From: a plasmid
DNA length: 64,000 bases
Sequence record: NZ_CP016173.1
Strand: one strand, 5' to 3'
Each line of letters begins with the position of its first letter. Position 1 is the stretch's first letter. Shown piece by piece: positions 16,926 through 56,019 of the stretch. The translations under genes and the position numbers were made by a program. The notes under the pieces are model-generated. The model ran no database searches. It saw nothing but the letters and a program-made list of their open reading frames with translations, and was not told the DNA's origin.

Positions 16926-18596
16926 TTAGATGCTGGGGCTCGGGCGGGCCATCCGCTCATCGTCCACGATGCCGGCGTCCTCCGGCAGCACGTCAGACAT
17001 GCCCAAGGGCATCAGCACGTCATCATCGTCCTCATCGGACGCTGTCGTCAGCGCCTTGGCTGCGGGGCTTGCGTCCACAAGACGCTGAACAAACGCCGCG
17101 TCGATCACCGCGCCGGCATTGTCCTGACCGTACAGCACCTGGTGCAATGCCTGCTGTGTCTTCTGCGCGTCCCAACGGGCGTTCACGCTTTCGACCAGTA
17201 CCTTCTGATAGCGGCTGTTGATCTCCTGCAACGCCGACTCCACGACCTCGACCTCGATTCCGTTCGCCGATGTCCGCACCTTGCCGGCGAACTCCTCCCA
17301 CTTTTGGTGGTGCACGTCGGCTTGCTTCATCTCGTCAATGATCTGGGCGCCGATCATCTGGTAGACCATATCCTCATCTACGCCCTTGGTTTTCATCCCA
17401 TCCATGATCGTCGTGAAGTTCGGTTCGATCATGTCGAACACGGGGGCAATCGCCTCCGCGTTCAGCCCAGCTTTCTTGGCGGTTTCCAGCAGCGCTTTCT
17501 CGAATCCAGCCCAACGTGGATCGGCGCGCCCAGTTCGCACGACTGGCGCGGCCGGTTCAACGCCTGCAGGAATGAAATTGGGCAGTTCATCGCCGATCGG
17601 CAGCCGACGCTTTGAGCGATTTTCCGGCAGCATATTTGCTGCCAGTGCCCCGTCCACAATCTCACGCAACTCCGGGGCGTAGCCAAAAATGTGATCCACG
17701 ATCAGCTCCGCGTCGCGCGCGGCACGGAAGATCTCGTGCTGATCACCCTTGAGCATCTCGCGCCACACACCGGCATACCTGCCGCCGTCGTCTTGTTTGC
17801 CTTGGATGCCAAGCATCGATGTCAGGAAAACCGTGGCAATATGAGCCCGCAGCTCTTCGCGCGCATGCGCCGCATCCCCGACAATATGCGGTAGGACTGG
17901 GGCTTTTCGATCCAAGCGCGACGCATGGCCGGTCCAGCGTGCCAGCATGCCTATCACCGTAGCGTAATAGTCGTCCTGGCTCTTAAAGGCGTTGCGTGGA
18001 GGTACTAAGATTTTGTCTGGCTCACGCGTGTAGTACGCGCCATTCACGACTACGTACGATCCGATCTGACTGGAGCTTTCATGCTCTATGTCGGCACCAG
18101 TGGCCCTGATCAGCTTTTCAGCCACCTCATGTGCCTGCCAGGTTCGCTCGCGCACAATCTCCGGCAGACCCAACACGTCGGCGCCGTTGAAGAGGGCGGC
18201 ATAGAATGGACGGGGCTTGGTGCGAGCACGGGCCTGCTCTTCCGTTTCATCGTCTTCTGCTGAGGCATCTTTGTCATCGGCCTTGTTCAGCTTGAGCCAG
18301 GGCACGCCCCAGTCCCAGTATTCGACATAGGCTGCTTTCGCGCCTGCGCGGATGCGGTACCCGGCTTCATTGGCCTGCTTAAGCGTCATCCAGCGAGGAT
18401 CCGAAGATCCGCGCCGCAACTGCTCCAGCAGCAAGCCCACATTGTTGCCACCTTTATATTTGACGCCAGACACGGGATTGAACGGGCGCGAAACCACATT
18501 GTTCCGCACCTGTGCCCAAGGAAGTCCATCGTGCTCTTCCAGCCCCTGAATGAGCCCCTTCGTCAGCCGTTGCCGAAAACTGTCACGGGTCGCCAT
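16926..18596 (-). CDS. ardC: ArdC-like antirestriction protein (N-terminal ArdC_N ssDNA-binding domain, extended C-terminus)
   Basis: 556 aa. The N-terminus (…LPWAQVRNNVVSRPFNPVSGVKYKGGNNVGLLLEQL…DPRWMTLKQANEAGYRIRAGAKAAYVEYW) matches the ArdC/TraC1 N-terminal domain. No HExxH motif is visible in the C-terminal part. Acidic tail. Confidence 0.75.
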   Translation of the reverse strand: MATRDSFRQRLTKGLIQGLEEHDGLPWAQVRNNVVSRPFNPVSGVKYKGGNNVGLLLEQLRRGSSDPRWMTLKQANEAGYRIRAGAKAAYVEYWDWGVPWLKLNKADDKDASAEDDETEEQARARTKPRPFYAALFNGADVLGLPEIVRERTWQAHEVAEKLIRATGADIEHESSSQIGSYVVVNGAYYTREPDKILVPPRNAFKSQDDYYATVIGMLARWTGHASRLDRKAPVLPHIVGDAAHAREELRAHIATVFLTSMLGIQGKQDDGGRYAGVWREMLKGDQHEIFRAARDAELIVDHIFGYAPELREIVDGALAANMLPENRSKRRLPIGDELPNFIPAGVEPAAPVVRTGRADPRWAGFEKALLETAKKAGLNAEAIAPVFDMIEPNFTTIMDGMKTKGVDEDMVYQMIGAQIIDEMKQADVHHQKWEEFAGKVRTSANGIEVEVVESALQEINSRYQKVLVESVNARWDAQKTQQALHQVLYGQDNAGAVIDAAFVQRLVDASPAAKALTTASDEDDDDVLMPLGMSDVLPEDAGIVDDERMARPSPSI

Positions 18597-18998: not shown

Positions 18999-21458
18999 TC
19001 AACGCGGCTCGAAAACGAATTCGACCTTGCTGTTGTCGGCCGTCAATCGCAGGCCAGCAGAGAATGGTCGTTTCGTCTTGCTGCTGATAAAGCCGTGAAC
19101 CGCACCCAAACTGCCATTGGTGAGGAGTTCACGAGCCTCGTCATCGGACAAGTCCCGGCCCGCGACCTTGCGCCACAGTTTGAAATCGCCGTTTTCGCAC
19201 ACGAACTGAGGATGCTCACCCCACTTCACGTGTACGACACTGCCACAGTTCGGGCACGGCGCTCCAATCGAATTGCCCAGCGGCACCGGCTCGCGTTCCG
19301 CGAACTCGAACTCAACCTTACTTTCGGCGCCAAGCTTCAGACCAGCTGAAAACTTCCGATTCGTCTTGCTGCTCACGAAGCCATCAAGCGGCTTGATGGA
19401 CCCGTTCTGCAACAGTTCCTGCGCTTCCGCGTCGCTGAGATCGCGCTTGGCGATCTCGCGCCACATCTTCCAACCACATGCCGCCGCACACTCGAAGGTG
19501 CGAACCTTTGCCTGGACACCAGGGTTTCCGCACTTCGGGCACGGCACGGCCAGTTGCGCGACGGGCGCGACGGGCATATCTGAAGCTTTGCGCCGGATCA
19601 CGTCGATCATGTCGCGCGTCATCGCGGCGATTTCGTCCATGAAGGCACGACGGCTGTATTGCCCCTTCTCCATCAGCCGAAGCTTTTGCTCCCATTCCCC
19701 TGTCATCTTGGGCGAGGTCAACGAGCCCACGCCATTGGTCTCCAGGAAGGTCACCAGGCCCATGCCCTTCTCGGTAGGCACCAGGTGCTGTTCCTTGCCC
19801 TCGCGGCGCAAGTAGGGTTCTTTTGCACGCCCCTGGCCGTCCTGGTCCGACAGCAGCCCTTCGATCGTCGCGGCACGCGTTGCCGGCGTGCCTAGCCCAC
19901 GCTCGCTCATGGCGTGGCGCAGCTCGTCTTCATCCACGAGTTTGCCGGCGCCTTCCATAGCGGCCAGGAGCGTAGCTTCGGTGAAGCGTGCGGCAGGCTT
20001 GGTCTGCAACCCCTTTGCCTCCACGCCTCGCGTCTGCACGGGCTCACCCGGCTGTACGGCGCAAAGTGCCGGCGTTCTGTCGTCGTCTCCCTGGCCACCG
20101 TAAACCACACGCCAACCCGGATCCACAAGCACCTTGCCGGTGGACTTGAACGTCTCACCGGCCACCACGGATATCCGAGTGGTCAGGCTGTACTGTGCTG
20201 CCGGGTGAAACACGGCGATGAACCGCCGTACCACCAGGTCGTAAATCTTGGCTTCATCCGGATCCAGCCCGCTGGGCGCGGTTTCGGTCGGGATGATGGC
20301 AAAGTGGTCGGAAATCTTGCTGTTGTCGAAAATCCGCTTGTCTGCGCGCACCCATCCGCTGTCCAATACACGCTTGGCGTGTTCGCCAAACGCTGCACGC
20401 GAACCCAAGCTTCCGAGCACCTGCTTTGCCGTGTCGATATAGTCCTCGGGCAGCGCCGTCGCATCCGTTCGCGGATAAGTCGTGGCCTTGTGTTTTTCGT
20501 ACAACGCCTGTGCAATATCAAGGGTACGCTTGGCAGAGAACTTGAACCGCTTGTTCGCTTCCCGCTGCAACGTGGTCAGATCGAACAATCGGGGCGCAGC
20601 GTTCGAAGTGGTCTTGGACTCATCGGTAACCGAGCTGGGCGCCACGCCATCGCACATCGCGACGATCGCCAAGGCTTGGCCCTTATCGAAGATGCGGGCA
20701 CCCGCCGCATCAGGGTCTTCACCCTCGCCTGCCTTTTCCCCCTGTCGCATCCATCGGCCCGAATAGGTTCCGGCCTGTGCAGCGAAGGTCGCATGCACCT
20801 CCCAGTAATCCTTCGGCACGAAATTGCGGATCTCACTTTCACGATGAACCACAATTGCCAGCGTGGGAGTCTGGACCCGCCCTGCCGTCATTTGCTCATA
20901 GGCGCCTTTCTGCCGCTCGCGCAGGCGCGTGATGCCACGCGAGCCGTTGATGCCGACCAGCCAGTCCGCCTCGCTGCGACATTTCGCGGCGTCGGCCAGC
21001 GCATTGAACTCGTCCCCCGGCCGCATGCCTTCATAGGCCTGGCGGATCGCGTCCGCCGTCATGGATTGCAACCACATGCGTCGGATTGGCTTTTTGCAGC
21101 CAGCCGCCTCGTAGATCAGCCGAAAGATGAGCTCACCCTCGCGGCCCGCGTCGCAAGCGTTCACGACTTGCGTCACGTCTTCTCGCTTCATGAGCCGTGC
21201 GAGCAAATTGAATTGGGGCTTGGCGCGGTCCAGGACTTGAAGGCCGAAGCGCGGCGGAATTACCGGCAGCGTGTCGAGGTCTTTCCCTGTGGTCTGCGCT
21301 TCAGGCACATGCAGAGTTACCAGATGCCCAACGGCAGAAGACACCAGCGCGTCGCCGCGTTCGAGCCAGCCGCCCTCGGCCTTTGAGAAACCGCCCAGGG
21401 CCTGCGCAATATCGCGGGCGACCGACGGCTTTTCCGCGATGACAAGTATCTTCGACAT
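18999..21458 (-). CDS. topB: DNA topoisomerase III (type IA) with C-terminal zinc ribbons
   Basis: ORF 18999..21584 trimmed to MSKILVIAEKPSVARDIA… with an AAGGGG RBS. Toprim motifs (EKPS, DAGREGE). Active site …ALYEKHKATTYPRTDATALPE…. C-terminal Cys4 repeats (CPKCG…C…C, CPNCGS…). Confidence 0.9.
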   Translation of the reverse strand: MSKILVIAEKPSVARDIAQALGGFSKAEGGWLERGDALVSSAVGHLVTLHVPEAQTTGKDLDTLPVIPPRFGLQVLDRAKPQFNLLARLMKREDVTQVVNACDAGREGELIFRLIYEAAGCKKPIRRMWLQSMTADAIRQAYEGMRPGDEFNALADAAKCRSEADWLVGINGSRGITRLRERQKGAYEQMTAGRVQTPTLAIVVHRESEIRNFVPKDYWEVHATFAAQAGTYSGRWMRQGEKAGEGEDPDAAGARIFDKGQALAIVAMCDGVAPSSVTDESKTTSNAAPRLFDLTTLQREANKRFKFSAKRTLDIAQALYEKHKATTYPRTDATALPEDYIDTAKQVLGSLGSRAAFGEHAKRVLDSGWVRADKRIFDNSKISDHFAIIPTETAPSGLDPDEAKIYDLVVRRFIAVFHPAAQYSLTTRISVVAGETFKSTGKVLVDPGWRVVYGGQGDDDRTPALCAVQPGEPVQTRGVEAKGLQTKPAARFTEATLLAAMEGAGKLVDEDELRHAMSERGLGTPATRAATIEGLLSDQDGQGRAKEPYLRREGKEQHLVPTEKGMGLVTFLETNGVGSLTSPKMTGEWEQKLRLMEKGQYSRRAFMDEIAAMTRDMIDVIRRKASDMPVAPVAQLAVPCPKCGNPGVQAKVRTFECAAACGWKMWREIAKRDLSDAEAQELLQNGSIKPLDGFVSSKTNRKFSAGLKLGAESKVEFEFAEREPVPLGNSIGAPCPNCGSVVHVKWGEHPQFVCENGDFKLWRKVAGRDLSDDEARELLTNGSLGAVHGFISSKTKRPFSAGLRLTADNSKVEFVFEPR

Positions 21459-21468
21459 GCCGCGCCCC

Positions 21469-21903
21469 TTACTGCTGGACGCTGTACTGCGCAGCGCGCG
21501 CGTGAATCCTGAGTGCCGCTGCTTCCTGTGCTTGTGCCGCCCGTACGGCCTGCCCATAGAGCGCGTCACCGGACATAGATTCATCGCTGTTCCGCGCCAT
21601 TTCCCACAGCACGCGCATCACGAAAAGCGCATTACCTTCCGGGTCCAGGCCTTGATCGCGCAGATGGTCGATCACACCCTGGGCCGTATCCTGCAGACCG
21701 CTCGCCTGGAGAAAATCGGCGATGGATCCCAGACCTTTCGGATTCTGACTGGGGTGAATCACGATTGGCGTGATGCGATCCGCGTCGAGCATGTCCCAGT
21801 ACGTCGAGCCGTCGCGCCCGACGCAGACGACCTTTCGGCCACCGGCCAGGTCGTCCATTTCAAGGTAAGTACCCGGCTGAAACTTCATCGTTTTCATTGT
21901 CAA
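21469..21903 (-). CDS. hypothetical protein (144 aa)
   Basis: Sits between the two topoisomerase genes. Its start region overlaps the 3' end of the upstream ORF by ~40 nt, so the start is uncertain. Confidence 0.5.
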   Translation of the reverse strand: MTMKTMKFQPGTYLEMDDLAGGRKVVCVGRDGSTYWDMLDADRITPIVIHPSQNPKGLGSIADFLQASGLQDTAQGVIDHLRDQGLDPEGNALFVMRVLWEMARNSDESMSGDALYGQAVRAAQAQEAAALRIHARAAQYSVQQ

Positions 21904-23389
21904 AATCCTGATGTCGGTCGGTAGAAATGGTGCTCAAACCACACATTTCTATCATATCAGCAACCATCATAGATGAGTCTTTTTTATTGACTTCGAGGTA
22001 ATTCTCGATCAATTTTGACAAATTTTGATGTCCGAAATGCCGCCCAACATTGGCGCTCCATTCCATGCCTTTCTTAGTCAAATCAAAGGATTGTGTGACA
22101 AGTTCGCGTGTCAGAAATTTGTTCACGTGATCGACCATCGTAGATGGTCGACCCAACCCGTTCTTGCTCATGAAATGCAGCAGCGACTGGGCCGGAGTCC
22201 ACGCCTGGAATCCCGGCGAGATCGGCTCGTTCCACAAGATCGACCCCTTTGCATCCCGTCGATGCCAAGCCAGGCCTTGCGCGGAAGAAGGCAACGTCGA
22301 AGTCTGCGCGGCATTTGGCATTTGCAGCTCACACGGCACGCCGCATTCGATCAAGCGCCTTGTCAGGTGTACAAGCACCCGCTCCTCAAAAGGCAGCAAG
22401 GAAAGCTCACGGTTCAACGCCAAACCGATGACCATGGGGTTAGGGGCTTCATGCGCATACTCGCCTCCAGGTTCACGCACAGCCGTAAAGAGGCCAGGCA
22501 CGAATCCGGCGCCGCTTGCGCGCGCGATCGCGGTAATTCGCCGCACCGCCTCGGGCGTAATCGCACAGTCCCTGGCCCTCGGGTAGGTCATCTGCCCACG
22601 CTCGTAGAGGTCTTGCATAGCGCTTGAGACCTCGGACACCTCACGCCCCGTCGCCAGGCTTGCGGACAACAAAATTTCATCGTGGTTCATCGGACGGCTC
22701 GCCATGGTGCCCTGTTTCACTGAACCCACGGACAGCCGCGCATCAAAGTGCGTGACATCAGGCACCGCCTCACCAGCGAAAATGGGTCTTCTGGCGATCC
22801 AATCCCCTTTCCCATCATCACTTGATGCTGCAAAAGTGACGATGCCCACGACCGGCACCTTCGATTGCAGCTCAAGCAGCAATGAACCCTGCACCCGCCC
22901 GACTGCCCCCTCTTCCCCCGACAGCGACCCGATAAGGCGATCCACAATGCGCCTGGCGTCACCACGGCAAGCCGTCATTTCATCGAATGGCCCGGCCGCA
23001 GCCAATGCAGCCTTCACTTCTGACGGGGCCAGCGATTTCAGCCGCACGCGCAACACCTTTGACCGATCCTTATCAGCGATGCAAAAGCGAAGCACGTCAC
23101 GGGCGATCACGTCCCCCTCTTGGTCGTCATCAGAGGCGAGATACACGTGCTTGGCTGACCTGGCCGCTTGCTCGATCTCCAAAGCGACACACTCGCGGTC
23201 GGGCTTCAGTCGATAGGCCAACTCGCGATACCTATCATCGATACCTATCGGCTTGAAGCCATCGGGATTGGTGCCGATATGCCCCACTGTAGCCAATACG
23301 CTGACATCCCGCATTCCGGCCGCGCGCAGCGCCGCAATCAACGCCTTGCGCTTTCCAGGCGCTTCAATCACAAAGACATTGGCAGGCAT
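21860..23389 (-). CDS. compact type IA topoisomerase-like protein (Toprim + catalytic core, no zinc ribbons)
   Basis: 509 aa. AAGGGA RBS. VFVIEAPGKRKAL (Toprim Glu). YLASDDDQEGD (DxD). GRVQGSLLLEL corresponds to TopB GRVQTP. LYERGQMTYPRARDCAITPEA retains the catalytic Tyr of the TYPRTD motif. AHEAPNP and GLGRPSTMVDHVNKF match the topo IA C-terminal core motifs. Confidence 0.7.
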   Translation of the reverse strand: MPANVFVIEAPGKRKALIAALRAAGMRDVSVLATVGHIGTNPDGFKPIGIDDRYRELAYRLKPDRECVALEIEQAARSAKHVYLASDDDQEGDVIARDVLRFCIADKDRSKVLRVRLKSLAPSEVKAALAAAGPFDEMTACRGDARRIVDRLIGSLSGEEGAVGRVQGSLLLELQSKVPVVGIVTFAASSDDGKGDWIARRPIFAGEAVPDVTHFDARLSVGSVKQGTMASRPMNHDEILLSASLATGREVSEVSSAMQDLYERGQMTYPRARDCAITPEAVRRITAIARASGAGFVPGLFTAVREPGGEYAHEAPNPMVIGLALNRELSLLPFEERVLVHLTRRLIECGVPCELQMPNAAQTSTLPSSAQGLAWHRRDAKGSILWNEPISPGFQAWTPAQSLLHFMSKNGLGRPSTMVDHVNKFLTRELVTQSFDLTKKGMEWSANVGRHFGHQNLSKLIENYLEVNKKDSSMMVADMIEMCGLSTISTDRHQDFDNENDEVSAGYLP

Positions 23390-23397
23390 AGATTCCC

Positions 23398-25092
23398 TTA
23401 CATGCTTAGGGTCGGACGCGACTCATCGGACAGCACGTCGTTCTGTTGGGCCTGGACGGCGCGCCCTATTTCGATGGCGCCGATGACCAGGCCGTTTTCG
23501 TCTTCCACTCCTCTCTCACCAGCCAGCGCTGCCCGTGCCACCAAAGCAGCTACCTCCGATGCTGATCTTCCAGGAGAAAGCCGGATGGAGATCCGCACAT
23601 CATCGTCTGCCACAGCTTGCTCCGGCTCTGCAAAAGAAATGGAACCGACCGTGTTTCCGTTGATGTCGCATACGTCAACCTCCTCCCCTGGCGTGCGGTC
23701 CATCTGCTCAGCAACCGCACGAACGATATTGGCAAGCTCATTGCGCATGCCCACGTCCATGAAAGCCGCGGTATCGGGGCGAATCGTGATCACCGCGACG
23801 GAAGGCGCAACCTCGACCTCGGCGTCCAGCCAACGATCGACCTTCAGGTGCGAGACCTCGGTAACCGCAACCCCTTTGTATTCGCCATGCTTTTTCACCT
23901 TGAAGCGTGCCGCAAAGGTGCGGTCCACAGCTTGAGGCTTGAGCAGATCGTCGGGCGGACTGGAGGTGCGCCATGACAGCCGATTTCCGTTTGAATCCCG
24001 GAAATTTAAACGCCATTGCAACCCGTACTGGGTATCCCAGCTCGTCACAGAGTGGAACGTGAGCGGTTCATCACGCTTCTGGCCAACCTCACCGACATGA
24101 ACCGATGGAATCTCGGCGTCACGTTCCTTGGCGTGCTGCCGCTGGTGCCCTGCTACCGCGCCCGCCGCAAAGGCCAGATACTTGCTCTTGAGCTCTATGT
24201 TTTCGTTTGAGAACAGGGTCTTTACGTTGCTCGTGAATGAGTCGTCGTTCTCCGATTTCAGCCACCAAGCAATGATCTTATCGGCGTATTGGGCGTGACG
24301 CTCGTAGTCCTGATAGAAGCGATCGCGACGCCTTGCATCCCGTTGAAGCTCTCGATCAAGCCCAGCGGCACGTTCATACGTGGCGAGCACGAAAGCCTCT
24401 TTGGCCTTGGCAGCCGACACAAAGCCCTTATCTACTTCCATGCAGAAGAGAACACGAGCAAGATAACCTTTGACCGGCATCGCGGTCACGCGCCCGGTGT
24501 CGGCGCTGAACGATTCTTCACCGTAGTCGCTCCAGAACGCATGCATCTGCTGCGTGAAAAGCGCAATGCTCGGATCGACTCCGGCGAAATCTTCCAGGCA
24601 GGTAGAGCCAACTTCTTTGTAATTGCCTTGTCGATCTTTGAGCAAGTAACTGAGCTTCCTGGCACGCTTCGTGTTGCAGTGCTCGCAATTGATTGCGCAG
24701 TTAGCATGTGAGCGCATCACTTCCACGTCATCGGGATCGGTAGAGACGGAGAACAACAAGTTGCCCGCTTCTGTCGCCTCGATCTGACCCACAACGGACC
24801 AGTCGCCCAACTTGACAATCGGGTAGTCCAACGAAAGGCGATTGACCAGGAATACCGCGCGTCCGAAGGGCGGCTCATCTCCCTCCATGAGCCGGACAAT
24901 ATATGCCTCGGTACCCGCGCTCGTATCCTGCGTCTTCCAGTAGTAGCGTTGCTGGCTTGTTGCGACCACCTTTATGGGGTCGAGCCCAAAGGCCTCCGCC
25001 TTCTTGTTCAACCGTGCAAGCGAAGACTCGAAATCGTCCATCCCGTGAAGGGGAACAAGGACATCGCTTTGAAGACGCGTAGCCATAGTCAC
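23398..25092 (-). CDS. uncharacterised protein with Cys4 motif and one C-terminal 'DINGN' repeat domain (564 aa)
   Basis: CAINCEHCN…STCLEDF cysteines. C-terminal …RPDTAAFMDVGMRNELANIVRAVAEQ…DVCDINGNTVGSISF… matches the repeat found twice in the 733-aa protein. ATGA overlap with the upstream gene. Confidence 0.7.
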   Translation of the reverse strand: MTMATRLQSDVLVPLHGMDDFESSLARLNKKAEAFGLDPIKVVATSQQRYYWKTQDTSAGTEAYIVRLMEGDEPPFGRAVFLVNRLSLDYPIVKLGDWSVVGQIEATEAGNLLFSVSTDPDDVEVMRSHANCAINCEHCNTKRARKLSYLLKDRQGNYKEVGSTCLEDFAGVDPSIALFTQQMHAFWSDYGEESFSADTGRVTAMPVKGYLARVLFCMEVDKGFVSAAKAKEAFVLATYERAAGLDRELQRDARRRDRFYQDYERHAQYADKIIAWWLKSENDDSFTSNVKTLFSNENIELKSKYLAFAAGAVAGHQRQHAKERDAEIPSVHVGEVGQKRDEPLTFHSVTSWDTQYGLQWRLNFRDSNGNRLSWRTSSPPDDLLKPQAVDRTFAARFKVKKHGEYKGVAVTEVSHLKVDRWLDAEVEVAPSVAVITIRPDTAAFMDVGMRNELANIVRAVAEQMDRTPGEEVDVCDINGNTVGSISFAEPEQAVADDDVRISIRLSPGRSASEVAALVARAALAGERGVEDENGLVIGAIEIGRAVQAQQNDVLSDESRPTLSM

Positions 25093-25922
25093 GGCTCCAG
25101 CCCGCGTGCGTCCAAATCAATTTCATTGCCATCCGCATCAGTGATGAATAGCTCCTTGTCATCACTCCCTGCGTAGTCGCCGAACCATGCTTTGCGGTAA
25201 ACACCTATCGCATCGCCTCCGGCATCGCGAACATAGAACTCCTTGGTAAGGAATCCATCCAGCTCGACCCAACCCGTCAGAGACACATCGGGATAAAGCG
25301 CGCCATGCTCGTTCTTATCCCGGTTCCACGCTGCGATCTCGGCTTCCGACAGGATCTCCAAGCCGAGAGCTCGAAGCCGCCGCTCCGCTTCGTCCACACG
25401 AGCCGACACATCGTCCGGGCCCACGCTGGCGTGCTGCCCAAGCGCGGTGGCCGGGCGTACATCATCAAGCGTCAATCCGCATGCGCGCGCCGACTTCACA
25501 TACTCGATGCAGAAATGGGACAACATCACGCTACCGAACACCCGCGTGATCTCCGAATCGGCCAAGCTCGCGATATCCTGAGTCCTCATCGTCTCAATCA
25601 ACTGATCAAGCCATTTCGGATCATCCCCGCCCTGGGCGAGCCGATTTTTTATGCCATTAATGCGTTCGTACCGATCGACCTGAGGGCTCTTCTGCAATTC
25701 CGGCACGCGATACTTCATCAGCCATTCCGGGCCGAGCGTGTTGCGCACCCGCTGCAACGCCGCCGAGTGCTCCTCTGTCATTCCGGGATAACGGGCTCGC
25801 TCCCAGCAATCTCGCAGCGCGGATTTCCAGTTTCGGCCGTTCTTGTCGCGAAAGGTCGCCAGCGCTTCCTCCTGCAAAGGCGTCAGCGCTTCTACCTCGT
25901 GGGATTTCGGGTGCTCGGCCAT
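25089..25922 (-). CDS. uncharacterised protein, paralogue A (277 aa)
   Basis: Shares a ~60-aa core with the next gene (DPKWLDQLIETMRTQDIASLADSEITRVFGSVMLSHFCIEYVKSARACGLTLDDV). Confidence 0.65.
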   Translation of the reverse strand: MAEHPKSHEVEALTPLQEEALATFRDKNGRNWKSALRDCWERARYPGMTEEHSAALQRVRNTLGPEWLMKYRVPELQKSPQVDRYERINGIKNRLAQGGDDPKWLDQLIETMRTQDIASLADSEITRVFGSVMLSHFCIEYVKSARACGLTLDDVRPATALGQHASVGPDDVSARVDEAERRLRALGLEILSEAEIAAWNRDKNEHGALYPDVSLTGWVELDGFLTKEFYVRDAGGDAIGVYRKAWFGDYAGSDDKELFITDADGNEIDLDARGLEP

Positions 25923-25929
25923 ACGTCAC

Positions 25930-26886
25930 CTACATCGGGCTCGGGGCATCGTCGTCTGCACGATTGCCGTTCTTCTTGGCCGCTTCCACGGCCTCCTCCA
26001 CGCTGCCGACTGAAGAAAGAAAATCGCGCATGTCTTGTGTGATCGTCAGTTGATCCGATTCGCGTACCCACTCACCCTTCCCACGAATGGTCACATAATC
26101 GGTACTCCAGCCGTCGGTGATGGCAATATGCCCGTTCGGCATTTGGGCGACATAGCTTTCGCAAGACGGCGACGTGTACAGGACGAGCTCGCCACTTTCA
26201 TCGCGCAGCCCATTCCGTGCCTCACCGCTGCTAACAACCAGCTCATCTTCGATGTCGCGATCCAGCGCTGTGAGAGGATAAAGGTCATCGAGGATCAAGC
26301 CACACTGGCGCGCAGCTTTCGCATACTCAATGCAGAATCCTGACAGCACAACTTGGTCAAATACGCGCTCGATTTCCGCATCATCCAGGCTCGTAATTTT
26401 CTCGGCCTGCATCTTTCCCAAGATCCCATCCAGCCATCGGGGATCCTGGCCATTGGTGGCGAGCCGCTCCTTCAGGTCTTCTTTCCAATTGAGCGCATCG
26501 AGCAGGGCATCGCCATCGATGGCTTCGAGCATTTCGGCGCTTACGGAAATCCCCCAACTGCCGTCCATCCGATTCGCATGCCCGGACGCGAGGCGCAAAT
26601 TCACGGTGGTCGCACGGGGGTCGAATCCGAACTCCACGTCTTGGATCAGTGCGAAGTTGCCGCTCTCAATCGTCACGCGGTTCACTTCTTGCAGCAGCTC
26701 CCGTACGTGAGCGCGCGCCATCTCTTTCGCGATATCCAACCGATCCTGGTCGTACCCGCCCTCTGAAGCCATTACGGCCAGCTTCGTATGCCTTTCAGCC
26801 AAGTAGGCGAGCCGTACAGAAAAATTGTGCGCGTCGGCATTCTTCATGCCGCGCTCCTGAAGGCGCAAGGCCAAATCACGATCCAT
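25930..26886 (-). CDS. uncharacterised protein, paralogue B (318 aa)
   Basis: GAGGAAA RBS. Core DPRWLDGILGKMQAEKITSLDDAEIERVFDQVVLSGFCIEYAKAARQCGLILDDL is homologous to paralogue A. Confidence 0.65.
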   Translation of the reverse strand: MDRDLALRLQERGMKNADAHNFSVRLAYLAERHTKLAVMASEGGYDQDRLDIAKEMARAHVRELLQEVNRVTIESGNFALIQDVEFGFDPRATTVNLRLASGHANRMDGSWGISVSAEMLEAIDGDALLDALNWKEDLKERLATNGQDPRWLDGILGKMQAEKITSLDDAEIERVFDQVVLSGFCIEYAKAARQCGLILDDLYPLTALDRDIEDELVVSSGEARNGLRDESGELVLYTSPSCESYVAQMPNGHIAITDGWSTDYVTIRGKGEWVRESDQLTITQDMRDFLSSVGSVEEAVEAAKKNGNRADDDAPSPM

Positions 26887-26924
26887 GTTGTTTCCTCTCG
26901 GCTTCCGGCAAGGATGATGGTTAA

Positions 26925-29126
26925 TTACGCTAGTTCAGGCGCATCGCCACTCATGCGGCGCTCGTACTCTTCGAAGGAGACACGCCCCAGCACGACATCT
27001 TCAAGCGATTTAAATTGGTCGCCACTGAGCTTGTCGAACTGGTTTTCTCGCACTATCTGCGGCTCTTCATAGCCGTTGGCGACCTCGCCCTTGGCGTTCA
27101 CAAGCCACACCTCGCCCTCGCCCTGCCCGTATCCTGGCTCGAAATCGGGCGCAGTCACCACGTACCGATACTCGTCTTCGGCAATGCCCGAGTAGCCATC
27201 TTCGGCGAGATAGACCCGGCCCTCGGCAAGGGCCTTTCTCATGTCAATCACGCCATCTTGCTCCAACGACGGCGCGGCCTGGTACAGGTAGGAGCCGACG
27301 ACATTGCCATTGATATCAGTCAGCGGAAAATCATCTTTCCCACTACGGACTGTCGAGGCAGCGTCCCGCAGGATGCGGGCCACTTCACTTGCAGCATCGT
27401 TTTCGAATGCCGCATTGCCAGTCTCGATAACAACTCGCACCGCTCCATCCTGCAAGGGTCCGTCTGGGAGCTTGTCCGCGACATCCATGCAGCCAACGCG
27501 ATTGCCATTGATGTCGTATAGCTTGAAGTCGGCGCCCCAAAGGCCTGGCAGCGATTTGATCTTGTCGCCGGCATTTTGGATGATGCGAGCAACCTCTTCA
27601 TTGCGTCCCGTATCGACAAAAGCGGCATTGCCCGTATCTTCGATCAAGAGCGTCACATACAGCTTTTTCATTTGAAAATCCTCCCAAAACCGTTCGTCGC
27701 TCAGTTCCCGCACGCGCTTTTCATCCAGGGGCACCCAAAGCGGTTGACCCCGAAGATCAATCTTGATGGTGCGGTCATGCGGATCGTCGTGGAAGGTCAG
27801 ACCATCCACACCAGGCAAGTCACCAAATAGCGCCTTTACGCTCGCCTCGATTGTGCAAATGGCATGGTCCTCCTTACTACTGAGCCCCCCTTCGTGAGCG
27901 CTCAGCCGCGCCAAAATGCAATGTTGCGCCGCGAGCTCTCGCATCTGCTCCTGCAATTGCAACGCGGCCGAGAGCGATAGCCCAGTCCCTTCGCGCAGCG
28001 CCTCCACGAATTGCCGCTGATTCTCTGCGAGGTTTGCCATCCGCGCGGCATCGCCGACCGCTTGTATCTGCCCGATCAACTCAAGAGACTCGTCACATTG
28101 CTCTTGGGCATACTCTTGGAAGTCGCATACAACAAACGGCCCTTCTTCCGGGCACGCTTTCATGAGCTCCGCCATCGCATATTCGGCTCCTGTCTTGGAG
28201 AGAAGGGTCACGCCCTCGAAGTCGGGGTCCGGCAATTTCAGGCTTAGGGATGTCTTACCGTTCGCATATAGTCTGCCAAACGCGCGGCCATGCTTATCCA
28301 GCACGATAAGGCGGTTCGTGGTGAGTACGTTGGGAGGCCGGTTGGCGGCTTCTTGCCACGCATTTGCGTGCTGTCGCAGTGTGGCGATGGTCTCAGTGCG
28401 AAGGTCTTCGGTGTCCTTCACCACGAGCGTCTCGCCGTCCATGTCGAAGGAAAGCTGGACGGTCTCTCCAAGCTGATTTTTCACCTGCACATGCTTATGG
28501 CTCTCGACTAGCTCCGCCAATTGATCCTCTGGGACGTTGGCGCCATGGGCGGTCAAGCCGTCTTCATCCCGCGTCGTCTGCACCACCACCGGCTTTCCGT
28601 CCACCAGCCAGAAGCCGTCTTTGCCTTGCGAGATCTCCATACGAATTCCTTGCTCGTTCATAAAATAAGCGCGCACCTGCGCTGACTCTTCGGGCGACAA
28701 CCGGCGAACATTCTGGATGTCCCAGACAAAGACGCTTGAAGGCGAAGCCCAATCGTCGTTCTCCCATACTTGGATCCCCCCGTACCCAAGCTGCCGCGCC
28801 GCTTGAGGAAGCGGAAGCTCGTCGGCCAGGAAGTAGTCCACGAAAGGCTTTCCGCGCTGCGCGGATTCCAGCGCTTCGGTCAGTCTCTCGCGATCCTGCT
28901 CAAACAATCCTGGGTGCTCCAACGCCCTGGTCAGAATCGACTCGGCGACATCTTTGTCTGTGGTGTCCGCTATGCGTACCTGACCCAGGTCATAGACCTC
29001 GACGCCGGCGTTGGTCGGATCGAAATAGGTGCTACTTCCCTGCGTGGAAAAATAGGCACCATTGGGGCCTATATCGCCGCGCCTGACGCCCAGCAGACCC
29101 ACAGAACGTGGAAGTTCAAAAGCCAT
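26925..29126 (-). CDS. large uncharacterised protein with two tandem 'TGNAAF…EVARI…DINGNxVG' repeat domains (733 aa)
   Basis: Repeats at aa ~489-560 and ~561-632 (nt ~27231..27662): …EDTGNAAFVDTGRNEEVARIIQNAG…LYDINGNRVGCMDV… and …ETGNAAFENDAASEVARILRDAAS…LTDINGNVVGSYLY…. Confidence 0.75.
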   Translation of the reverse strand: MAFELPRSVGLLGVRRGDIGPNGAYFSTQGSSTYFDPTNAGVEVYDLGQVRIADTTDKDVAESILTRALEHPGLFEQDRERLTEALESAQRGKPFVDYFLADELPLPQAARQLGYGGIQVWENDDWASPSSVFVWDIQNVRRLSPEESAQVRAYFMNEQGIRMEISQGKDGFWLVDGKPVVVQTTRDEDGLTAHGANVPEDQLAELVESHKHVQVKNQLGETVQLSFDMDGETLVVKDTEDLRTETIATLRQHANAWQEAANRPPNVLTTNRLIVLDKHGRAFGRLYANGKTSLSLKLPDPDFEGVTLLSKTGAEYAMAELMKACPEEGPFVVCDFQEYAQEQCDESLELIGQIQAVGDAARMANLAENQRQFVEALREGTGLSLSAALQLQEQMRELAAQHCILARLSAHEGGLSSKEDHAICTIEASVKALFGDLPGVDGLTFHDDPHDRTIKIDLRGQPLWVPLDEKRVRELSDERFWEDFQMKKLYVTLLIEDTGNAAFVDTGRNEEVARIIQNAGDKIKSLPGLWGADFKLYDINGNRVGCMDVADKLPDGPLQDGAVRVVIETGNAAFENDAASEVARILRDAASTVRSGKDDFPLTDINGNVVGSYLYQAAPSLEQDGVIDMRKALAEGRVYLAEDGYSGIAEDEYRYVVTAPDFEPGYGQGEGEVWLVNAKGEVANGYEEPQIVRENQFDKLSGDQFKSLEDVVLGRVSFEEYERRMSGDAPELA

Positions 29127-30421: not shown

Positions 30422-31168
30422 CTATGGTTCAAACTCCTGACGCTCAGCAGGAGCGATATCCCACACGTCATCGAGCACGGCTGTCGATGCAAGCGTTTCC
30501 TCGGCGTTCATGACGTGGGTCTGCGGCGCCCGATCAATCGCCTCTACTGTGCGCCATAGCTGTTTTCCCAGAGCTGCGGAAACGCTATCCTGGCCCGCTG
30601 AGCCGATGGCTCTCACACCAGCGCTGATGAGCGTCTCCGCGCGGCAACCCGCTTCGACGCCAAGTGCGGCCTCTACGGTTTCTATCGTCCGCGATGCACG
30701 CGCAAGCACCGCGTAGGTGTGCCCGGCCAGCCAACCCACATCTGGCGTATGCCCCACTTGGACCGATTGCTCTAGATGCTGCGCAACATCGCGTAGATAG
30801 GTTTCGTAATCCACGATGGCGCCATTAAGGAACACGGCGGCCGCACCGGCATAGCCTCGCACGCCAGTGGTTTCGTCACCCTCTTCCTTCAGGCGAGCAT
30901 AAAGCTCCAGAACGGCCGCTATAACTGCACTGCGCTTGCGCGAGCTGCGCTCTTCCGGATCCTCGCTATCCCCGTTTGCCGCCGTGAATGCCTCTGCGAG
31001 CCTATCGCGGCATTCGGCGAGCACCCGCATCACATAGCCGTCCTGAGCAAAGAGCAATACATCCCGATCAAACGCCCCGCTACGTTCCGCGTCCTGCAGG
31101 TCCGCGATCACAAGCTCCTTTAGGAAGGGCTGGTAAACGGGGGTAGGACATTTGCGATCCGGTTCCAT
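30422..31168 (-). CDS. hypothetical protein (248 aa)
   Basis: GAAGGTAGAGGGG RBS region. No motif recognised. Confidence 0.55.
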   Translation of the reverse strand: MEPDRKCPTPVYQPFLKELVIADLQDAERSGAFDRDVLLFAQDGYVMRVLAECRDRLAEAFTAANGDSEDPEERSSRKRSAVIAAVLELYARLKEEGDETTGVRGYAGAAAVFLNGAIVDYETYLRDVAQHLEQSVQVGHTPDVGWLAGHTYAVLARASRTIETVEAALGVEAGCRAETLISAGVRAIGSAGQDSVSAALGKQLWRTVEAIDRAPQTHVMNAEETLASTAVLDDVWDIAPAERQEFEP

Positions 31169-33548: not shown

Positions 33549-34736
33549 TCAAATGAATTGACCGTAGGAGCCGAGCACGTATTCGGCTTGCCGATCCACG
33601 CAGATCCAGCGACGCCCCAACCTTTCGGCGGCAAGTCCTACCTTGCACCGACCGGCCAGGCAATCGACAACCAGTTGGCCCCTCTCCGTCAAAAACTCGA
33701 TGAGAAACTGAGCCAGGCGCACGGGCATCGATGCGCCATGAGTGGCCAGGCCATGCTCCGCGCAATACCGGCGATACGCGGCGTCACGATCGTCTGCACA
33801 GCGCGCAAATTCAAGGACATTCTTCGGAATTCTTCCTTCGGTTTGCCTGGAATACGCCCCCACGCGCTTTCTATAGGCGCCGTCGGAATGCACCGCGCCT
33901 GCCTTTATCCCGCCCGCCCGCACGAAGCGGGAGTGCTGCTCGCTATGCGGCTCCAAAACCCTCCGGTTGTCCGCGAGAACGCGGTCCGGATCGTTGGTAA
34001 GCCAGTACACGGGCTCATATGCCGTATTGAGCTGCACGCGCTTCTTGCTCGCCCATGCGACCGGGCCAGGTGGCTTGGGAGAAGTCCAAATGATCTCGTC
34101 CATCTTGTACAAGCCCAGGCGAGCGTGCAACGCCAGTATCAACCGTTCCCGATACAGCGAACGTGCCGGCGACCTCTGCATGAAAACGTCATTGCCGACG
34201 TTCAAGCAAATGGATCCGCCTTGCACCAGGTTGCGCACGACAGGCTCAAGAACCTTGCACAGCCAATCGACATAGCGCGATTCGGGCACATTGCCATAGG
34301 CGCGTGGCTGTGCAAGTGGATATGGCGGCGATGTCACGATCAAGTGGATGGGCTCCGAGATCTTCGTGAAGAAATGCTCGCACGATGAAATAACAGCGAT
34401 ACCCAGCTCCGTCGAAAAGCCGAGGATAGCGGCGCCATCGGCAATCAACGGCAGTCCGCTTCCGTCAATGCCCTTTCCTGTCAATTGCCACAAACCACGC
34501 TGGCCTGCAGGTTCAATTACCCCGGCATGCTTTAACGTCTGCTGATACCACCGCACGCGGCGTTTCAAGAGACTCACGGGGGACTGCGCCTGGCCCACAG
34601 GCCGCCGCTCCTCAAAAGCCTCGCTACTGATACCTGTTGCCCTCGCCACAGCGTCGTAAAGACGCTCCTGGCTCACGGGTTCACCGGCCTGCACGTAAGT
34701 CTCAGCCACCGCCGCGAAGAGATTCAAATCCTTCAC
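33549..34736 (-). CDS. orphan DNA methyltransferase, beta-class (N6-adenine/N4-cytosine; motif IV before motif I) with ~130-aa N-terminal extension
   Basis: IVTSPPYP (motif IV, S/DPPY/F) upstream of C-terminal VVDCLAGRCKVGLAAERLGRRWICVD (FxGxG-like motif I). No restriction endonuclease nearby. GTG start with an AAGGGG RBS. Confidence 0.8.
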   Translation of the reverse strand: MKDLNLFAAVAETYVQAGEPVSQERLYDAVARATGISSEAFEERRPVGQAQSPVSLLKRRVRWYQQTLKHAGVIEPAGQRGLWQLTGKGIDGSGLPLIADGAAILGFSTELGIAVISSCEHFFTKISEPIHLIVTSPPYPLAQPRAYGNVPESRYVDWLCKVLEPVVRNLVQGGSICLNVGNDVFMQRSPARSLYRERLILALHARLGLYKMDEIIWTSPKPPGPVAWASKKRVQLNTAYEPVYWLTNDPDRVLADNRRVLEPHSEQHSRFVRAGGIKAGAVHSDGAYRKRVGAYSRQTEGRIPKNVLEFARCADDRDAAYRRYCAEHGLATHGASMPVRLAQFLIEFLTERGQLVVDCLAGRCKVGLAAERLGRRWICVDRQAEYVLGSYGQFI

Positions 34737-39856: not shown

Positions 39857-40195
39857 ATGGATCACACGACATCAATCAATCGCGGCATCGAATTGTTGGC
39901 ATTGTGCCAAGCGCTTCAGAGCGAAAAGGACGGCGTTGTCCGGCCCGCGCCGTCCACGGTGGACAGGTCAAAGACGCTTGACCAGTTCGCGAAGGACATC
40001 GATGCAGCGACAACCTATATGGCTGCGCTGCACAAACTGATTCCGCAGATGTTGCGCCTGGCAGAGCTTGGCCGGAAGCTTGAGACCGAAGGCAAGCTGA
40101 AACTTGAAAACGGCGATGATTATTCAGCCGCTGCGCTGAATTTCGTCCTGCAGGAATATGGCCTCGCCCAAAAAGCTCACGACGAAAGGAAGTGA
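39857..40195 (+). CDS. hypothetical protein (112 aa)
   Basis: Co-directional gene 2 nt after the previous stop. Confidence 0.5.
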   Translation: MDHTTSINRGIELLALCQALQSEKDGVVRPAPSTVDRSKTLDQFAKDIDAATTYMAALHKLIPQMLRLAELGRKLETEGKLKLENGDDYSAAALNFVLQEYGLAQKAHDERK

Positions 40196-40200
40196 AGAAC

Positions 40201-41361: not shown

Positions 41362-41362
41362 C

Positions 41363-42355
41363 CTACTTCTGGTCGGGGGGCCCATCCACTAACGAAAGCC
41401 ATCGCGGGATTTCCTTCGAGAGTAGGTCGCCGAAAGACACGGGGCTGTTCGGCCCGATTGGGATTCCGTATCCCATCCTGATGAAGTCTTGCTGTAACTC
41501 AGGCACCATTAGTGCGGTGTTCAGCATCCTGTTCAGGCGAGCTACCACCTGCGGCGGCGTGCCCGCTGGCACCATAAGCCCACCCCAGGTATCGACGTTC
41601 AAGTTCGGATAACCCAATTCCTGCACCGTCGCTATGTCCTTCGCGATTGGGATCCTGCGATTTGACAAGACTGCGACCACTCGCACTGTTCCGGCCCGTA
41701 TGTGAGCCATCGTTGCTGCCAAGTTCTCGAACTGGACATCGACCCGCCCTCCAATCACTTCGACAAGCGCGGGCGCGCTGCCGGTGTGGGGAACGTGCTC
41801 CATGACGACGTTCGCTTCACGTTGGAACAACTCACACAGAAGATGTCCGGTCGATCCAACACCTGAGGACGCACACGTCAACGCCCCTGGGTGCGCTTTC
41901 GCCAAGCTGATCAGATCCGAAATGTTTTTGATCGGGGAATCTGCTCGGGTGACTATCAGATTGGGGGTGACTGCCAAAAGCCCGACCGGCAGCAGATCCC
42001 TCGAAAAGTCATAATCCGCGTTCGCGCCTAGTGCTTTATGGAGCACGTTCGGCCGCCCGCTCAAGAAGAGGGTATAGCCATCAGGCGCGGCGCGTGCCAC
42101 GGCCTTGGCTGCAATGTTGCTGGCCGCGCCTGGGCGATATTGGATGATCATCCTGTGGCCGAACAGGGCGGTCATATGCTTTCCGAGAGTTCGCACCAGC
42201 CTATCTCCCCCGCCGCCTGGAGGGTAGCCGATAACAATCGTGATTGGCCCCTGTGGGAATACGGGCTCCGTCGCCGATCCTGCCTCCGCCGCGAATGGGG
42301 CTACCCCGGCCGCTGCCAGCATCACTGCGGCCAATTCTCGCCTTGTAAGCTGCAT
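41363..42355 (-). CDS. Bug-family (TctC-like) tripartite tricarboxylate transporter substrate-binding protein
   Basis: ORF trimmed to MQLTRRELAAVMLAAAGVAPFAAEA… (signal peptide). Characteristic …ASSGVGSTGHLLCELFQREANVVMEHVPHTGSAPALVEVIGGRVDVQF…. This family is expanded in Bordetella, Achromobacter and Cupriavidus. Confidence 0.85.
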   Translation of the reverse strand: MQLTRRELAAVMLAAAGVAPFAAEAGSATEPVFPQGPITIVIGYPPGGGGDRLVRTLGKHMTALFGHRMIIQYRPGAASNIAAKAVARAAPDGYTLFLSGRPNVLHKALGANADYDFSRDLLPVGLLAVTPNLIVTRADSPIKNISDLISLAKAHPGALTCASSGVGSTGHLLCELFQREANVVMEHVPHTGSAPALVEVIGGRVDVQFENLAATMAHIRAGTVRVVAVLSNRRIPIAKDIATVQELGYPNLNVDTWGGLMVPAGTPPQVVARLNRMLNTALMVPELQQDFIRMGYGIPIGPNSPVSFGDLLSKEIPRWLSLVDGPPDQK

Positions 42356-50188: not shown

Positions 50189-50212
50189 CTTCAATTTCCT
50201 TATCAATACTGT

Positions 50213-54450: not shown

Positions 54451-55478
54451 CAGTTGAATAAGGAACCAAGACGGTCAATCACGGATGATCCGGTGCTCGA
54501 CGCAGGGGAAGCTGAGGGCACAGATGATGCGGAGTACCCAGATAGTTGGCCTTTCAGCGCGCCTATGGAGCTGTTCAGCCCATTGAGTTGAGCCTGCGCA
54601 TTTTGCAGCGCCGACTGGTAGTTTGAGCAATTGTTGTAGGTCTGCGACAGACAACTCGACAAGCGTGACTGCGCCTGCGAGACGGCCTGTTGCGCGGGGC
54701 CTACCTGCGCCTGGAGATTCGCAAGCTGGCTGTTGACGTTGTTGATCTGGCTGTTGCCCGTGCTGATTTGGCCCAGTGCTCCCGACGAGTCAAGACCGGC
54801 ACCAGGCGACCCACTCGAACCGCTCGAACCGCTGCCACCGAAATCAAGCGGCGTGCCGCTGAACGGGTTGAGGTTCACGTCGTAGTCCGTCTGCGCAGGA
54901 GGCTTGGAGTATTGCGAGCCCAAATTGGGGTCGATGGTCGCAAGCGCTCCGGACATCAGGCCATTGCTAAGACCATTCAGATCACCGATTCCACCCATCC
55001 CGGTGCCCGAAGACAGACCATAGATCGCCTGATTGATAGACGATGTGGTCATCATCCTGGCCTGGTCCACCGCCGAGCAAACTTTCTTCTTGGCGAATTT
55101 CACCAGTGCATTTGCAACCGCATCCCGGACGGAAGAAAGGCTGGGAATCGCAAAAGACAGATCCCATGTTCCCAGTAGGCTCGAAAAGCAGTCACCCGAT
55201 GGCGAGAAAAGCGCCTCCGTGTTCGGCATGGCCGAGGCCAACTCCGTATGGATCTTCAGCGCATTCTGGATGGCGTTGCCAATAGTCCCGGGCGTGTTGC
55301 CGGTCGCGCAAAGCTCGGCCTCCTTCTTGATGCTGTCGGCGACGACTGAAGTCTGCTGAGAAAGCAGGTTGCTAGAGCCAAGAGCTGCATGCGCCGCAGG
55401 CATGCCGCCCAACAACAGCACAACCACACTCGCGCGCACCGCCGAGGCAGCCGCACCCAAGCGGAAATCACACGACAT
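54450..55478 (-). CDS. secreted Gly/Ser/Asn/Gln-rich protein (342 aa)
   Basis: ORF trimmed to MSCDFRLGAAASAVRASVVVLLLGGMPAAHA with a GGGGAG RBS. Long GSGSSGSSGSPGAG… and QLANLQAQ… low-complexity C-terminal half. Confidence 0.6.
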   Translation of the reverse strand: MSCDFRLGAAASAVRASVVVLLLGGMPAAHAALGSSNLLSQQTSVVADSIKKEAELCATGNTPGTIGNAIQNALKIHTELASAMPNTEALFSPSGDCFSSLLGTWDLSFAIPSLSSVRDAVANALVKFAKKKVCSAVDQARMMTTSSINQAIYGLSSGTGMGGIGDLNGLSNGLMSGALATIDPNLGSQYSKPPAQTDYDVNLNPFSGTPLDFGGSGSSGSSGSPGAGLDSSGALGQISTGNSQINNVNSQLANLQAQVGPAQQAVSQAQSRLSSCLSQTYNNCSNYQSALQNAQAQLNGLNSSIGALKGQLSGYSASSVPSASPASSTGSSVIDRLGSLFN

Positions 55479-56019
55479 CACGGTAGCTCCCCATAATCTG
55501 CATAATCCGAAGCAGCCTGGCGCCGGAAAAAATGCGCCCAAGCATTTGCGCACGTTCGAACACAACGAGCCTGTGACGCACGGTGGATACCATCACGTCA
55601 TCTCGGCTGGTGGATTCAAGGGTGCTCGCCAACTGCTCGATGAAACGGTCATTTTTCTGGGCCAGATACCGCAAAATCAGCATGCAACGAGAGGTGGTCA
55701 GCCCTGCGAGCAACGTAACAAGCGGATCCACTAGATGGTCCAGCACGGCGGCGTGCTCTTGCATCACGTGCTGAAGGTTCCCAATGAAAGCCCGCAGGAG
55801 CATGCTGTCCTCGCTCGACAGCGTATGCTCGCGGTAGTCCACAGCCCAGCGATCCACGCCGTCAAGGCCGAGAAGAAAGTTGAGCGTTCGGGCCGCGTCA
55901 CCGCCGCTCGCGCCTGCCACGAAGTGCGACAGCACCGACTGGCTATCGAGATCCAACTCGCGGATAGCCGCGCCGTCCCAGACGGCTTCATCTTGTTGCG
56001 CCATTTTAATTGCAGCCAT
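55468..56019 (-). CDS. hypothetical protein (183 aa)
   Basis: Co-directional ORF directly downstream of the giant helicase gene. Confidence 0.5.
   Translation of the reverse strand: MAAIKMAQQDEAVWDGAAIRELDLDSQSVLSHFVAGASGGDAARTLNFLLGLDGVDRWAVDYREHTLSSEDSMLLRAFIGNLQHVMQEHAAVLDHLVDPLVTLLAGLTTSRCMLILRYLAQKNDRFIEQLASTLESTSRDDVMVSTVRHRLVVFERAQMLGRIFSGARLLRIMQIMGSYRDVV

Follow-up and report, generated by a model that had tools for sequence, protein, structure and literature searches.

A small, usually tandem domain without a curated-database name in a four-gene block of shuffled modules on a type IVB conjugative plasmid

In a 64,000-nucleotide stretch of plasmid NZ_CP016173.1 (hereafter the window), we found that a block of four adjoining minus-strand open reading frames (ORFs) at 23398-29126 is built from shuffled modules. 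The ORFs, which lie on the strand and in the region described in an earlier sequence-only reading of this DNA, encode proteins of 564, 277, 318 and 733 residues, here called p564 (23398..25092), p277 (25089..25922), p318 (25930..26886) and p733 (26925..29126). Both p733 and p564 carry a domain of about 60 residues that is real, conserved and confidently folding. This domain is a new family without a name in curated databases, found in a known kind of system, namely the polyvalent or establishment proteins of mobile elements. The plasmid backbone is of the type IVB (Dot/Icm-type, I-type) conjugative kind, and all four proteins end in acidic tails of a sort that is enriched among the proteins of the window. 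The four genes probably help the plasmid to establish in a new host. More specifically, we propose, at a probability of about 0.45, that they encode modular polyvalent-type accessory proteins of a Dot/Icm-type conjugative plasmid, with the tandem pair of domains acting as a recipient-directed binding module (for establishment or anti-defence) and the tails as export signals. For the p733 and p564 sequences the recorded source is Bordetella flabilis, where they lie on a contig of 118,710 bases.

The domain occurs in p733 as two tandem copies, as had been claimed. Hidden Markov model (HMM) matches cover residues 489-556 (27459..27662, minus strand; LYVTLLIEDTGNAAFVDTGRNEEVARII...FKLYDINGNRVG) and residues 561-620 (27267..27446, minus strand; AVRVVIETGNAAFENDAASEVARILRDAA...FPLTDINGNVVG), and the two copies align with 46% identity over 56 residues (E=2e-10). 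A further HMM match lies in p564 at residues 433-492 (23617..23796, minus strand; AVITIRPDTAAFMDVGMRNELANIVRAVAEQ...VDVCDINGNTVG), the two proteins being 30% identical over 128 residues (E=1e-8). Copy coordinates were confirmed by translation. An HMM made from these first three copies recovers all three of them, as well as the equivalents in every full-length homologue of p733 and p564. The motif h-I-E-T-G-N-A-A-F ... E-V-A-R-I-L ... L-x-D-x-N-G-N-x-V-G is kept across 21 homologue copies, whose alignment keeps A17, F18, D53, N55, N57, V59 and G60 without exception and E26, I30 and G56 almost without exception; the polar residues E26, R29, D53, N55 and N57 are kept across very distant taxa. The similarity spans the whole domain and therefore is not just a shared pentapeptide (DINGN), the outcome that the sequence-only reading had named as fatal to its proposal. 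The repeat that it described is thus real, but measures about 60 residues and not about 70, and it is probably present four times and not three. AlphaFold predicts for copy 1 of p733 a first strand, two helices, of which the second is the longer, and a hairpin formed by β2 and β3 (β-α-α-β-β), with a predicted local distance difference test score (pLDDT) of 87, and for p733 residues 486-733, which hold the tandem pair and the C-terminal domain, a pLDDT of 90.7 and a predicted template modelling score (pTM) of 0.68. Counting residues by hand, we found the p733 repeats to be moderately acidic.

The probable fourth copy is in p564. The 72 residues that follow the p564 copy (RISIRL...SEVAALVARAALAG...VEDENGLVIGAIEIG) resemble a degenerate second copy, which would occupy residues ~500-545 (23458..23595, minus strand; RISIRLSPGRSASEVAALVARAALAGERGVEDENGLVIGAIEIG). 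When the family alignment of this region was compared with the domain alignment in hhalign, the match had an E-value of 2.4e-4 and a probability of only 43%, and tandem-domain proteins align across p564 residues 435-556 in phmmer searches. From these comparisons p564 probably holds a second, degenerate copy, giving four copies in total. The single copy previously placed at the C-terminus of p564 is thus present, but it does not form the extreme end of the protein and is followed by this probable degenerate copy.

None of the four proteins matched Pfam or NCBIfam at E<0.01, and 0 of 113 diverse relatives matched any Pfam family over the domain itself. PADLOC gave no match for the four proteins or the domain. 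PDB sequence searches, with single proteins and with profiles, returned noise, including weak HIRAN matches at E~0.1 that cover the hairpin only, and p733 taken alone had no match in Pfam, NCBIfam, PADLOC or the PDB sequences. Structure searches gave no convincing match, and Foldseek against the viral models of BFVD retrieved only small uncharacterised phage proteins, which are sequence homologues. A literature search on the motif strings found nothing relevant, and KfrB does not figure in two Aravind-lab papers. The domain does match two PHROGs families without assigned function, phrog_33848 and phrog_9027, the latter a 72-position model that matches p733 in two stretches including copy 1 (E=7.1e-16), the p564 copy (E=2.9e-5) and stand-alone relatives (E from 1e-8 to 7e-23). 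These PHROGs entries hold phage-encoded forms only and are unannotated, and the plasmid-borne tandem and fused architectures are undescribed there. The earlier statement that the domain was unrecognised consequently stands for Pfam and NCBIfam, where neither the window proteins nor the 113 relatives led to any family for the repeat, but it has to be amended by the PHROGs matches and by the very wide distribution of the domain.

This distribution was assessed with HMMER, using a profile of the 21 copies against 1.84 billion representatives (50%-identity clusters). The scan gave 7,455 matches at E<=1e-3, a count inflated by partial matches because giant repeat proteins in this lowest score tier match the hairpin alone, 236 at E<=1e-10 and 13 at E<=1e-30. 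The domain is thus widespread: its 50%-identity clusters number in the thousands and come from plasmids, phages and prophage-like regions across many phyla. The giant repeat proteins, P0037 (5,362 residues), P0123 (2,423 residues) and P0128 (1,684 residues), show hairpin-only matches (profile positions ~38-61) 17-28 times, so the L-x-D-x-N-G-N-x-V-G hairpin also exists as an independent repeat; these proteins suggest that D-x-N-G-N is a generic turn motif.

A tandem pair is present in 117 of the 162 proteins that we collected. Several architectures occur: single-domain proteins of 58-76 residues, tandem-only proteins of 125-160 residues, longer proteins in which the tandem pair is N-terminal (some with a KfrB domain at the end), and a group of 48 proteins, p733 among them, in which a variable N-terminus of 0-760 residues is followed by the tandem pair, a 108-residue C-terminal region and an acidic tail. 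Fusion partners of the relatives are ART-PolyVal, LPD11, KfrB, Mob_Pre and a Tle1-like lipase. By tblastn the domain was located in nine phage records (eight phages), within runs of small hypothetical genes, in Brevundimonas jumbo phages, Bacillus phage FADO, a Gordonia phage and an Achromobacter phage. Nine plasmids carry the domain too, all of which MOB-suite typed as 'non-mobilizable'. Scanning with a degenerate DNA pattern added 41 genome contigs, mostly coding single-domain proteins, from Alpha-, Beta- and Gammaproteobacteria, Deinococcus, Actinobacteria, Planctomycetes, Verrucomicrobia, Acidobacteria, Clostridiales and two archaeal metagenome-assembled genomes (MAGs). The archaeal contigs (L020, 6321-6518, and L034, 3045-3350; binned as Methanobacteriota and Methanomicrobiales) hold single-domain homologues that could derive from a virus or plasmid or have been binned wrongly.

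Neighbours of the small domain genes include integrases, NinX, DUF6876 and PAPS reductase-like proteins. In three independent marine contigs (L010, L012 and L013) an ArdC of about 300 residues (ArdcN + MPTase-PolyVal) is encoded directly upstream of a 67-residue single-domain relative. A conserved 100-residue ORF follows the relative in these three contigs, and a further contig (L011) has the same gene order with an upstream gene that lacks a Pfam record. Elsewhere, a relative of the domain lies near an ART-PolyVal giant protein, and on a Vogesella plasmid the domain gene is beside RdgC and a gene resembling a type IV coupling protein.

The remaining parts of the four proteins are mosaics as well. 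In p733, N-terminal modules (residues 1-167, 163-250 and 237-390) precede the tandem pair, the 108-residue C-terminal region and the acidic tail. A word-indexed search retrieved five homologues of the protein, and the modules of its N-terminal half are common piecemeal to other proteins. The conserved 108-residue region (residues 626-733; 26928..27251, minus strand) is a β-rich domain with two helices and the acidic tail; it had no PDB match, and it always comes after the tandem pair in its subfamily, the 48 proteins with differing N-termini. The proteins p318 and p277 each consist of three modules: an N-module (residues 4-136 and 9-83, respectively), a shared 71-residue core (residues 138-208 at 26263..26475 in p318, DPRWLD...EIERVF...LSGFCIEYAKAARQCGLILDD, and residues 91-161 at 25440..25652 in p277; both minus strand) and a C-module (residues 228-303 and 176-277). 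Their cores are 58% identical (E=3e-25) and the proteins have nothing else in common, so that they are mosaics and not whole-gene paralogues; of the tandem paralogue pair described earlier, only the core relationship holds. All three modules of both proteins recur elsewhere among the collected proteins, fused upstream of the tandem pair in larger proteins (phmmer). The shared core is also found inside P0004, a p733 homologue, and in a Pseudomonas savastanoi plasmid the p733-like protein contains the p277 N-module as a fused part. The fourth protein, p564, has an N-terminal body of ~400 residues (phrog_2319 family, E=1e-49, no assigned function) followed by the domain, the probable degenerate copy and the tail; among its 31 homologues, members of 423-477 residues are without the C-terminal domain region. 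Such shuffling of modules across proteins is the pattern described for polyvalent proteins (PMC5512222). The suggestion in the sequence-only reading that the gene-family structure reflects a functional module is supported.

The nature of the plasmid is apparent from a relative, the 111.6-kb P. savastanoi plasmid NZ_CP032457.1, whose proteins are collinear with those of the window at 37-72% identity and which has genes for DotI, DotH, DotG, DotO, DotL, IcmW, DotA, DotD, a type IV pilus/type IV secretion system (T4SS) ATPase, RepA and ParM. The window itself encodes the IcmW homologue, a type IVB coupling-complex adaptor (55468..56019, minus strand; Pfam PF23130 IcmW, 44.4 bits against a cutoff of 27), in a gene that is the orthologue of the IcmW-annotated gene of the P. 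savastanoi plasmid. Also encoded in the window are ArdC-N + MPTase, TopB, an LPD1 protein, an Mrr_N-methylase, NTP_transf_8, a toprim/topoisomerase-like protein of 509 residues, a 2,045-residue Sbno-like helicase, a HerA/DUF5710 ATPase and a KfrA-like protein. The order p733-like gene, domain protein gene(s), p564-like gene, small ORF, TopB, ArdC is kept in the P. savastanoi plasmid, and an Aeromonas plasmid has a similar arrangement without an annotated p564-like gene; a megablast of the four-gene region against plasmids found no match. In related plasmids the locus shares synteny with genes for ArdC, TopB and toprim proteins, and the link with ArdC and TopB that had been proposed for the domain genes is borne out by this synteny and by the single-domain relatives that adjoin ArdC in marine contigs.

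Several other genes of the window deserve a remark. The 509-residue protein (21860-23389, minus strand) combines a Toprim domain with a no more than partial match to Topoisom_bac, adjoins a full-length TopB (18999-21584) and had no tblastn match in the P. savastanoi plasmid. An ORF of 144 residues (21469-21903, minus strand) overlaps the end of this toprim-like gene and the start region of TopB; the P. savastanoi plasmid has a counterpart in the same place that is 50% identical, and by this conservation the ORF is probably a real gene. A 1,120-residue protein (7381-10743, plus strand) without a Pfam match is 51% identical to a protein of 1,131 residues on the P. savastanoi plasmid and adjoins a KfrA_N-like DNA-binding protein. 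As these plasmids are typed 'non-mobilizable' despite a Dot/Icm system, their relaxase may have gone unrecognised, and this protein is a possible candidate. A fusion of Mrr_N with an N6/N4 DNA methylase (33549-34736, minus strand) and an M41-peptidase-like protein adjoining a TctC-family solute receptor (40192-42424) are unusual cargo for an accessory region.

All four proteins end in an acidic stretch, a hydrophobic or proline residue at -3, a small or acidic residue, and then Pro, Leu or Met (p277 ...DARGLEP; p318 ...DDDAPSPM; p733 ...SGDAPELA; p564 ...SRPTLSM). The same tail is present in at least eight otherwise unrelated neighbours: the ArdC-MPTase protein (16926-18596), the toprim/topoisomerase-like protein (21860-23389), a 248-residue protein (30422-31168), NTP_transf_8 (42585-43658), LPD1 (45115-48366), a 474-residue protein (48782-50206), the Sbno-like helicase (56095-62232) and a 452-residue protein (62318-63676). 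The last residue is often proline (…LEP, …PSP, …FAP, …YEP; also …PSM). With a tail pattern written post hoc, 13 of 65 window ORFs matched compared with 4 of 190 off-frame control ORFs (p=7e-6), and in the P. savastanoi plasmid the same post-hoc pattern matched 9 of 119 compared with 1 of 199 (p=8e-4). The mean net charge of the last 25 residues was -4.3 in tail-bearing proteins and +0.3 in the rest (p=8e-6). The tail is absent from the products of those genes (M23 peptidase, IcmW and their neighbours) that are collinear with the related plasmid's Dot/Icm region, and many metagenomic relatives end in the same kind of tail.

These tails are enriched and qualitatively fit the Dot/Icm C-terminal signal, on a pattern defined post hoc, and on this resemblance they may be a type IVB translocation signal. 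Nagai et al. are said to have reported in 2005 that a hydrophobic residue at -3 is important for RalF. A terminal proline (…LEP, …PSP, …FAP) is not known to have been described for Legionella signals. The signals of Dot/Icm substrates lie at the C-terminus and contain many small, polar and charged residues, often with a Glu-rich E-block that is recognised by DotM, and IcmSW serves as an adaptor; I-type conjugation systems and type IVB systems are closely related (PMC10025392, PMC9302130). We also considered that the tails might mimic the β-clamp motif or the SSB tail, and dropped this idea since the Gln of the clamp motif appears to be missing and no SSB tip pattern (D-D-D-I-P-F) is apparent.

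The common building block of the four-gene set is thus a small self-folding domain of ~60 residues with a predicted β-α-α-β-β order, normally deployed as a tandem pair; on its own it is also encoded by phages and conjugative elements from many phyla. Taking these observations together, we hypothesise that the tandem pair would constitute a binding module, in which each repeat would contribute one conserved polar pole formed from the T-G-N helix-capping loop and the D-x-N-G-N hairpin. Its target would be a component of the newly entered cell, which would place the module in establishment or anti-defence and not in plasmid housekeeping, and the variable modules, either fused or encoded alongside, would add further activities. 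The acidic tails would be Dot/Icm-type translocation signals, by which the four proteins, ArdC, the Sbno-like helicase, LPD1 and others could be exported into the recipient during conjugation. A bolder version, which we consider doubtful, is that the tails (…LEP, …PSP, …FAP, …PELx, …LSM) are a translocation signal shared within I-type (Dot/Icm-like) conjugation systems and mark at least a dozen plasmid proteins as an 'effector' repertoire injected into recipients. Its members would be p733, p564, p318 and p277 together with ArdC, the Sbno-like helicase, LPD1, the toprim/topoisomerase-like protein, NTP_transf_8 and others; the tandem domain would then be a new family of inter-bacterial effector modules, and its stand-alone phage relatives would act on the same conserved host target.

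Several of our results weigh against the proposal of an exported, recipient-directed binding module. Many members of the domain family belong to phages or to prophage-like parts of chromosomes, settings in which a T4SS plays no part, so translocation cannot generally explain the domain itself. No recurrent partner family stood beside the forms of 58-121 residues, which are mostly single-domain proteins, in a scan of ~30 genome loci and 41 proteins. The conserved N-cap Asn, the Phe and the NG turn could be purely structural, and every named match is annotated 'hypothetical protein'. As for export, the Dot/Icm structural genes were seen in the collinear P. savastanoi plasmid, the Bordetella window showing IcmW only; the regular expression for the tail was designed after inspection of the data, and the independent test in P. 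savastanoi was weaker.

Other explanations have to be set against these same data. One possibility, which seems to us unlikely, is that the C-terminal cassette (tandem pair, 108-residue region and tail) is itself a secretion-targeting module read by the type IVB coupling complex (DotL, IcmSW or DotM), with the N-terminal modules as its cargo. The cassette does recur unchanged in kind behind unrelated N-terminal regions of 0-760 residues in the 48 proteins, the element does encode IcmW, and XVIPCD is likewise a C-terminal α/β domain of ~120 residues with a tail (PMC10432156). However, this would leave aside the stand-alone proteins of 58-76 residues in tailed phages and in diverse genomes, including those of Gram-positives and archaeal MAGs, and the many proteins in which the tandem pair is N-terminal and followed by other regions such as KfrB. 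Moreover, ArdC, Sbno and LPD1 carry the same tail without the domain, which makes the tail separable from it, and the predicted order β-α-α-β-β differs from the ααβββ of XVIPCD (PMC10432156).

It is about as improbable, in our view, that the domain has no specific ligand and is kept, as an inert spacer or oligomerisation unit of the structure, for robust folding and for separating the modules of large mosaic proteins: thousands of stand-alone single- or double-domain proteins have nothing to space, and the five conserved polar residues listed above persist across very distant taxa, even though most invariant residues fit structural roles (helix N-cap, hydrophobic Phe, NG β-turn). An antitoxin or immunity function against toxins of the same elements, such as HicA, ADP-ribosyltransferases or lipases, appears more remote still. 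At one locus (L008, 8001-8419; metagenome contig ERZ27318118 k141_17641), amid ArdA, PcfJ and PC4-like genes, a 69-residue single-domain relative precedes a HicA_toxin gene by 3 bp, and ART-PolyVal and a Tle1-like lipase domain are among the fusion partners of the relatives. The survey of ~30 loci and 41 proteins, though, revealed no recurrent toxin family near the forms of 58-121 residues, the domain matched neither HicB nor another antitoxin family, and no toxin genes were recognised among the window proteins scanned. The idea of a HicA antitoxin, which came from that one locus, was accordingly set aside as unsupported by the neighbour survey, in which the adjacency did not recur.

These observations matter beyond this plasmid. 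A domain that is widespread and confidently folding and yet unnamed well deserves structural and functional work and its own entry as a domain family, and the locus clearly illustrates how modules are shuffled in the establishment region of a plasmid. The common tails bear on whether type IVB conjugative plasmids inject a set of proteins that includes ArdC and a giant helicase; if this is true, such protein injection bears in turn on how plasmids overcome the defences of the recipient.

Comparison with known systems places the domain among several families without merging it into any. The D-x-N-G-N loop recalls EF-hand-like DxDxDG loops, which coordinate metal and have D/N at loop positions 1, 3 and 5 and Gly at position 6; here D/N likewise occupy positions 1, 3 and 5, but Gly is at position 4. 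From HicB-type antitoxins the domain is set apart by the single HicA adjacency and by having no HicB match in Pfam. Anti-restriction proteins of the ArdA/ArdC type share the genomic neighbourhoods of the domain genes, and we detected no sequence or fold relationship between them and the domain. XVIPCD and BID, C-terminal domains recognised by T4SS coupling proteins (XVIPCD binds the all-alpha domain of VirD4), resemble the p733 arrangement in placing a conserved C-terminal domain of ~100-140 residues with a tail behind variable N-terminal effector regions, but they belong to type IVA systems, whereas the present domain is also found by itself in phages and at the N-terminus of proteins and, compared with XVIPCD, has another predicted order of secondary structure. 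Dot/Icm effectors, with their C-terminal E-block-type signals, are alike in that the present proteins are carried by an element with Dot/Icm-type machinery including IcmW and have an acidic C-terminus rich in small residues with a hydrophobic residue near -3 (PMC10025392, PMC9302130); they differ in that the putative target here is a bacterial recipient in conjugation and not a eukaryotic host. The closest parallel lies with the polyvalent proteins of phages and conjugative elements, in which the same domains are strung into giant proteins or encoded as neighbouring genes (PMC5512222; Iyer et al. 2017). As with these proteins and their LPD domains, small uncharacterised domains appear in many orders, within large proteins or in adjoining stand-alone genes, and the modules of p277, p318 and p733 recur in differing orders in other proteins. 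The window neighbourhood, with its ArdC-N/MPTase protein, SNF2/Sbno-type helicase, methylase and LPD1, is of the same kind; relatives of the domain are fused to ART-PolyVal and LPD11, and ArdC stands beside single-domain relatives. Unlike the LPD families, the present domain matches no Pfam LPD model or other Pfam family, is nearly always a tandem pair and, in one large subfamily, forms a fixed C-terminal cassette with the 108-residue region.

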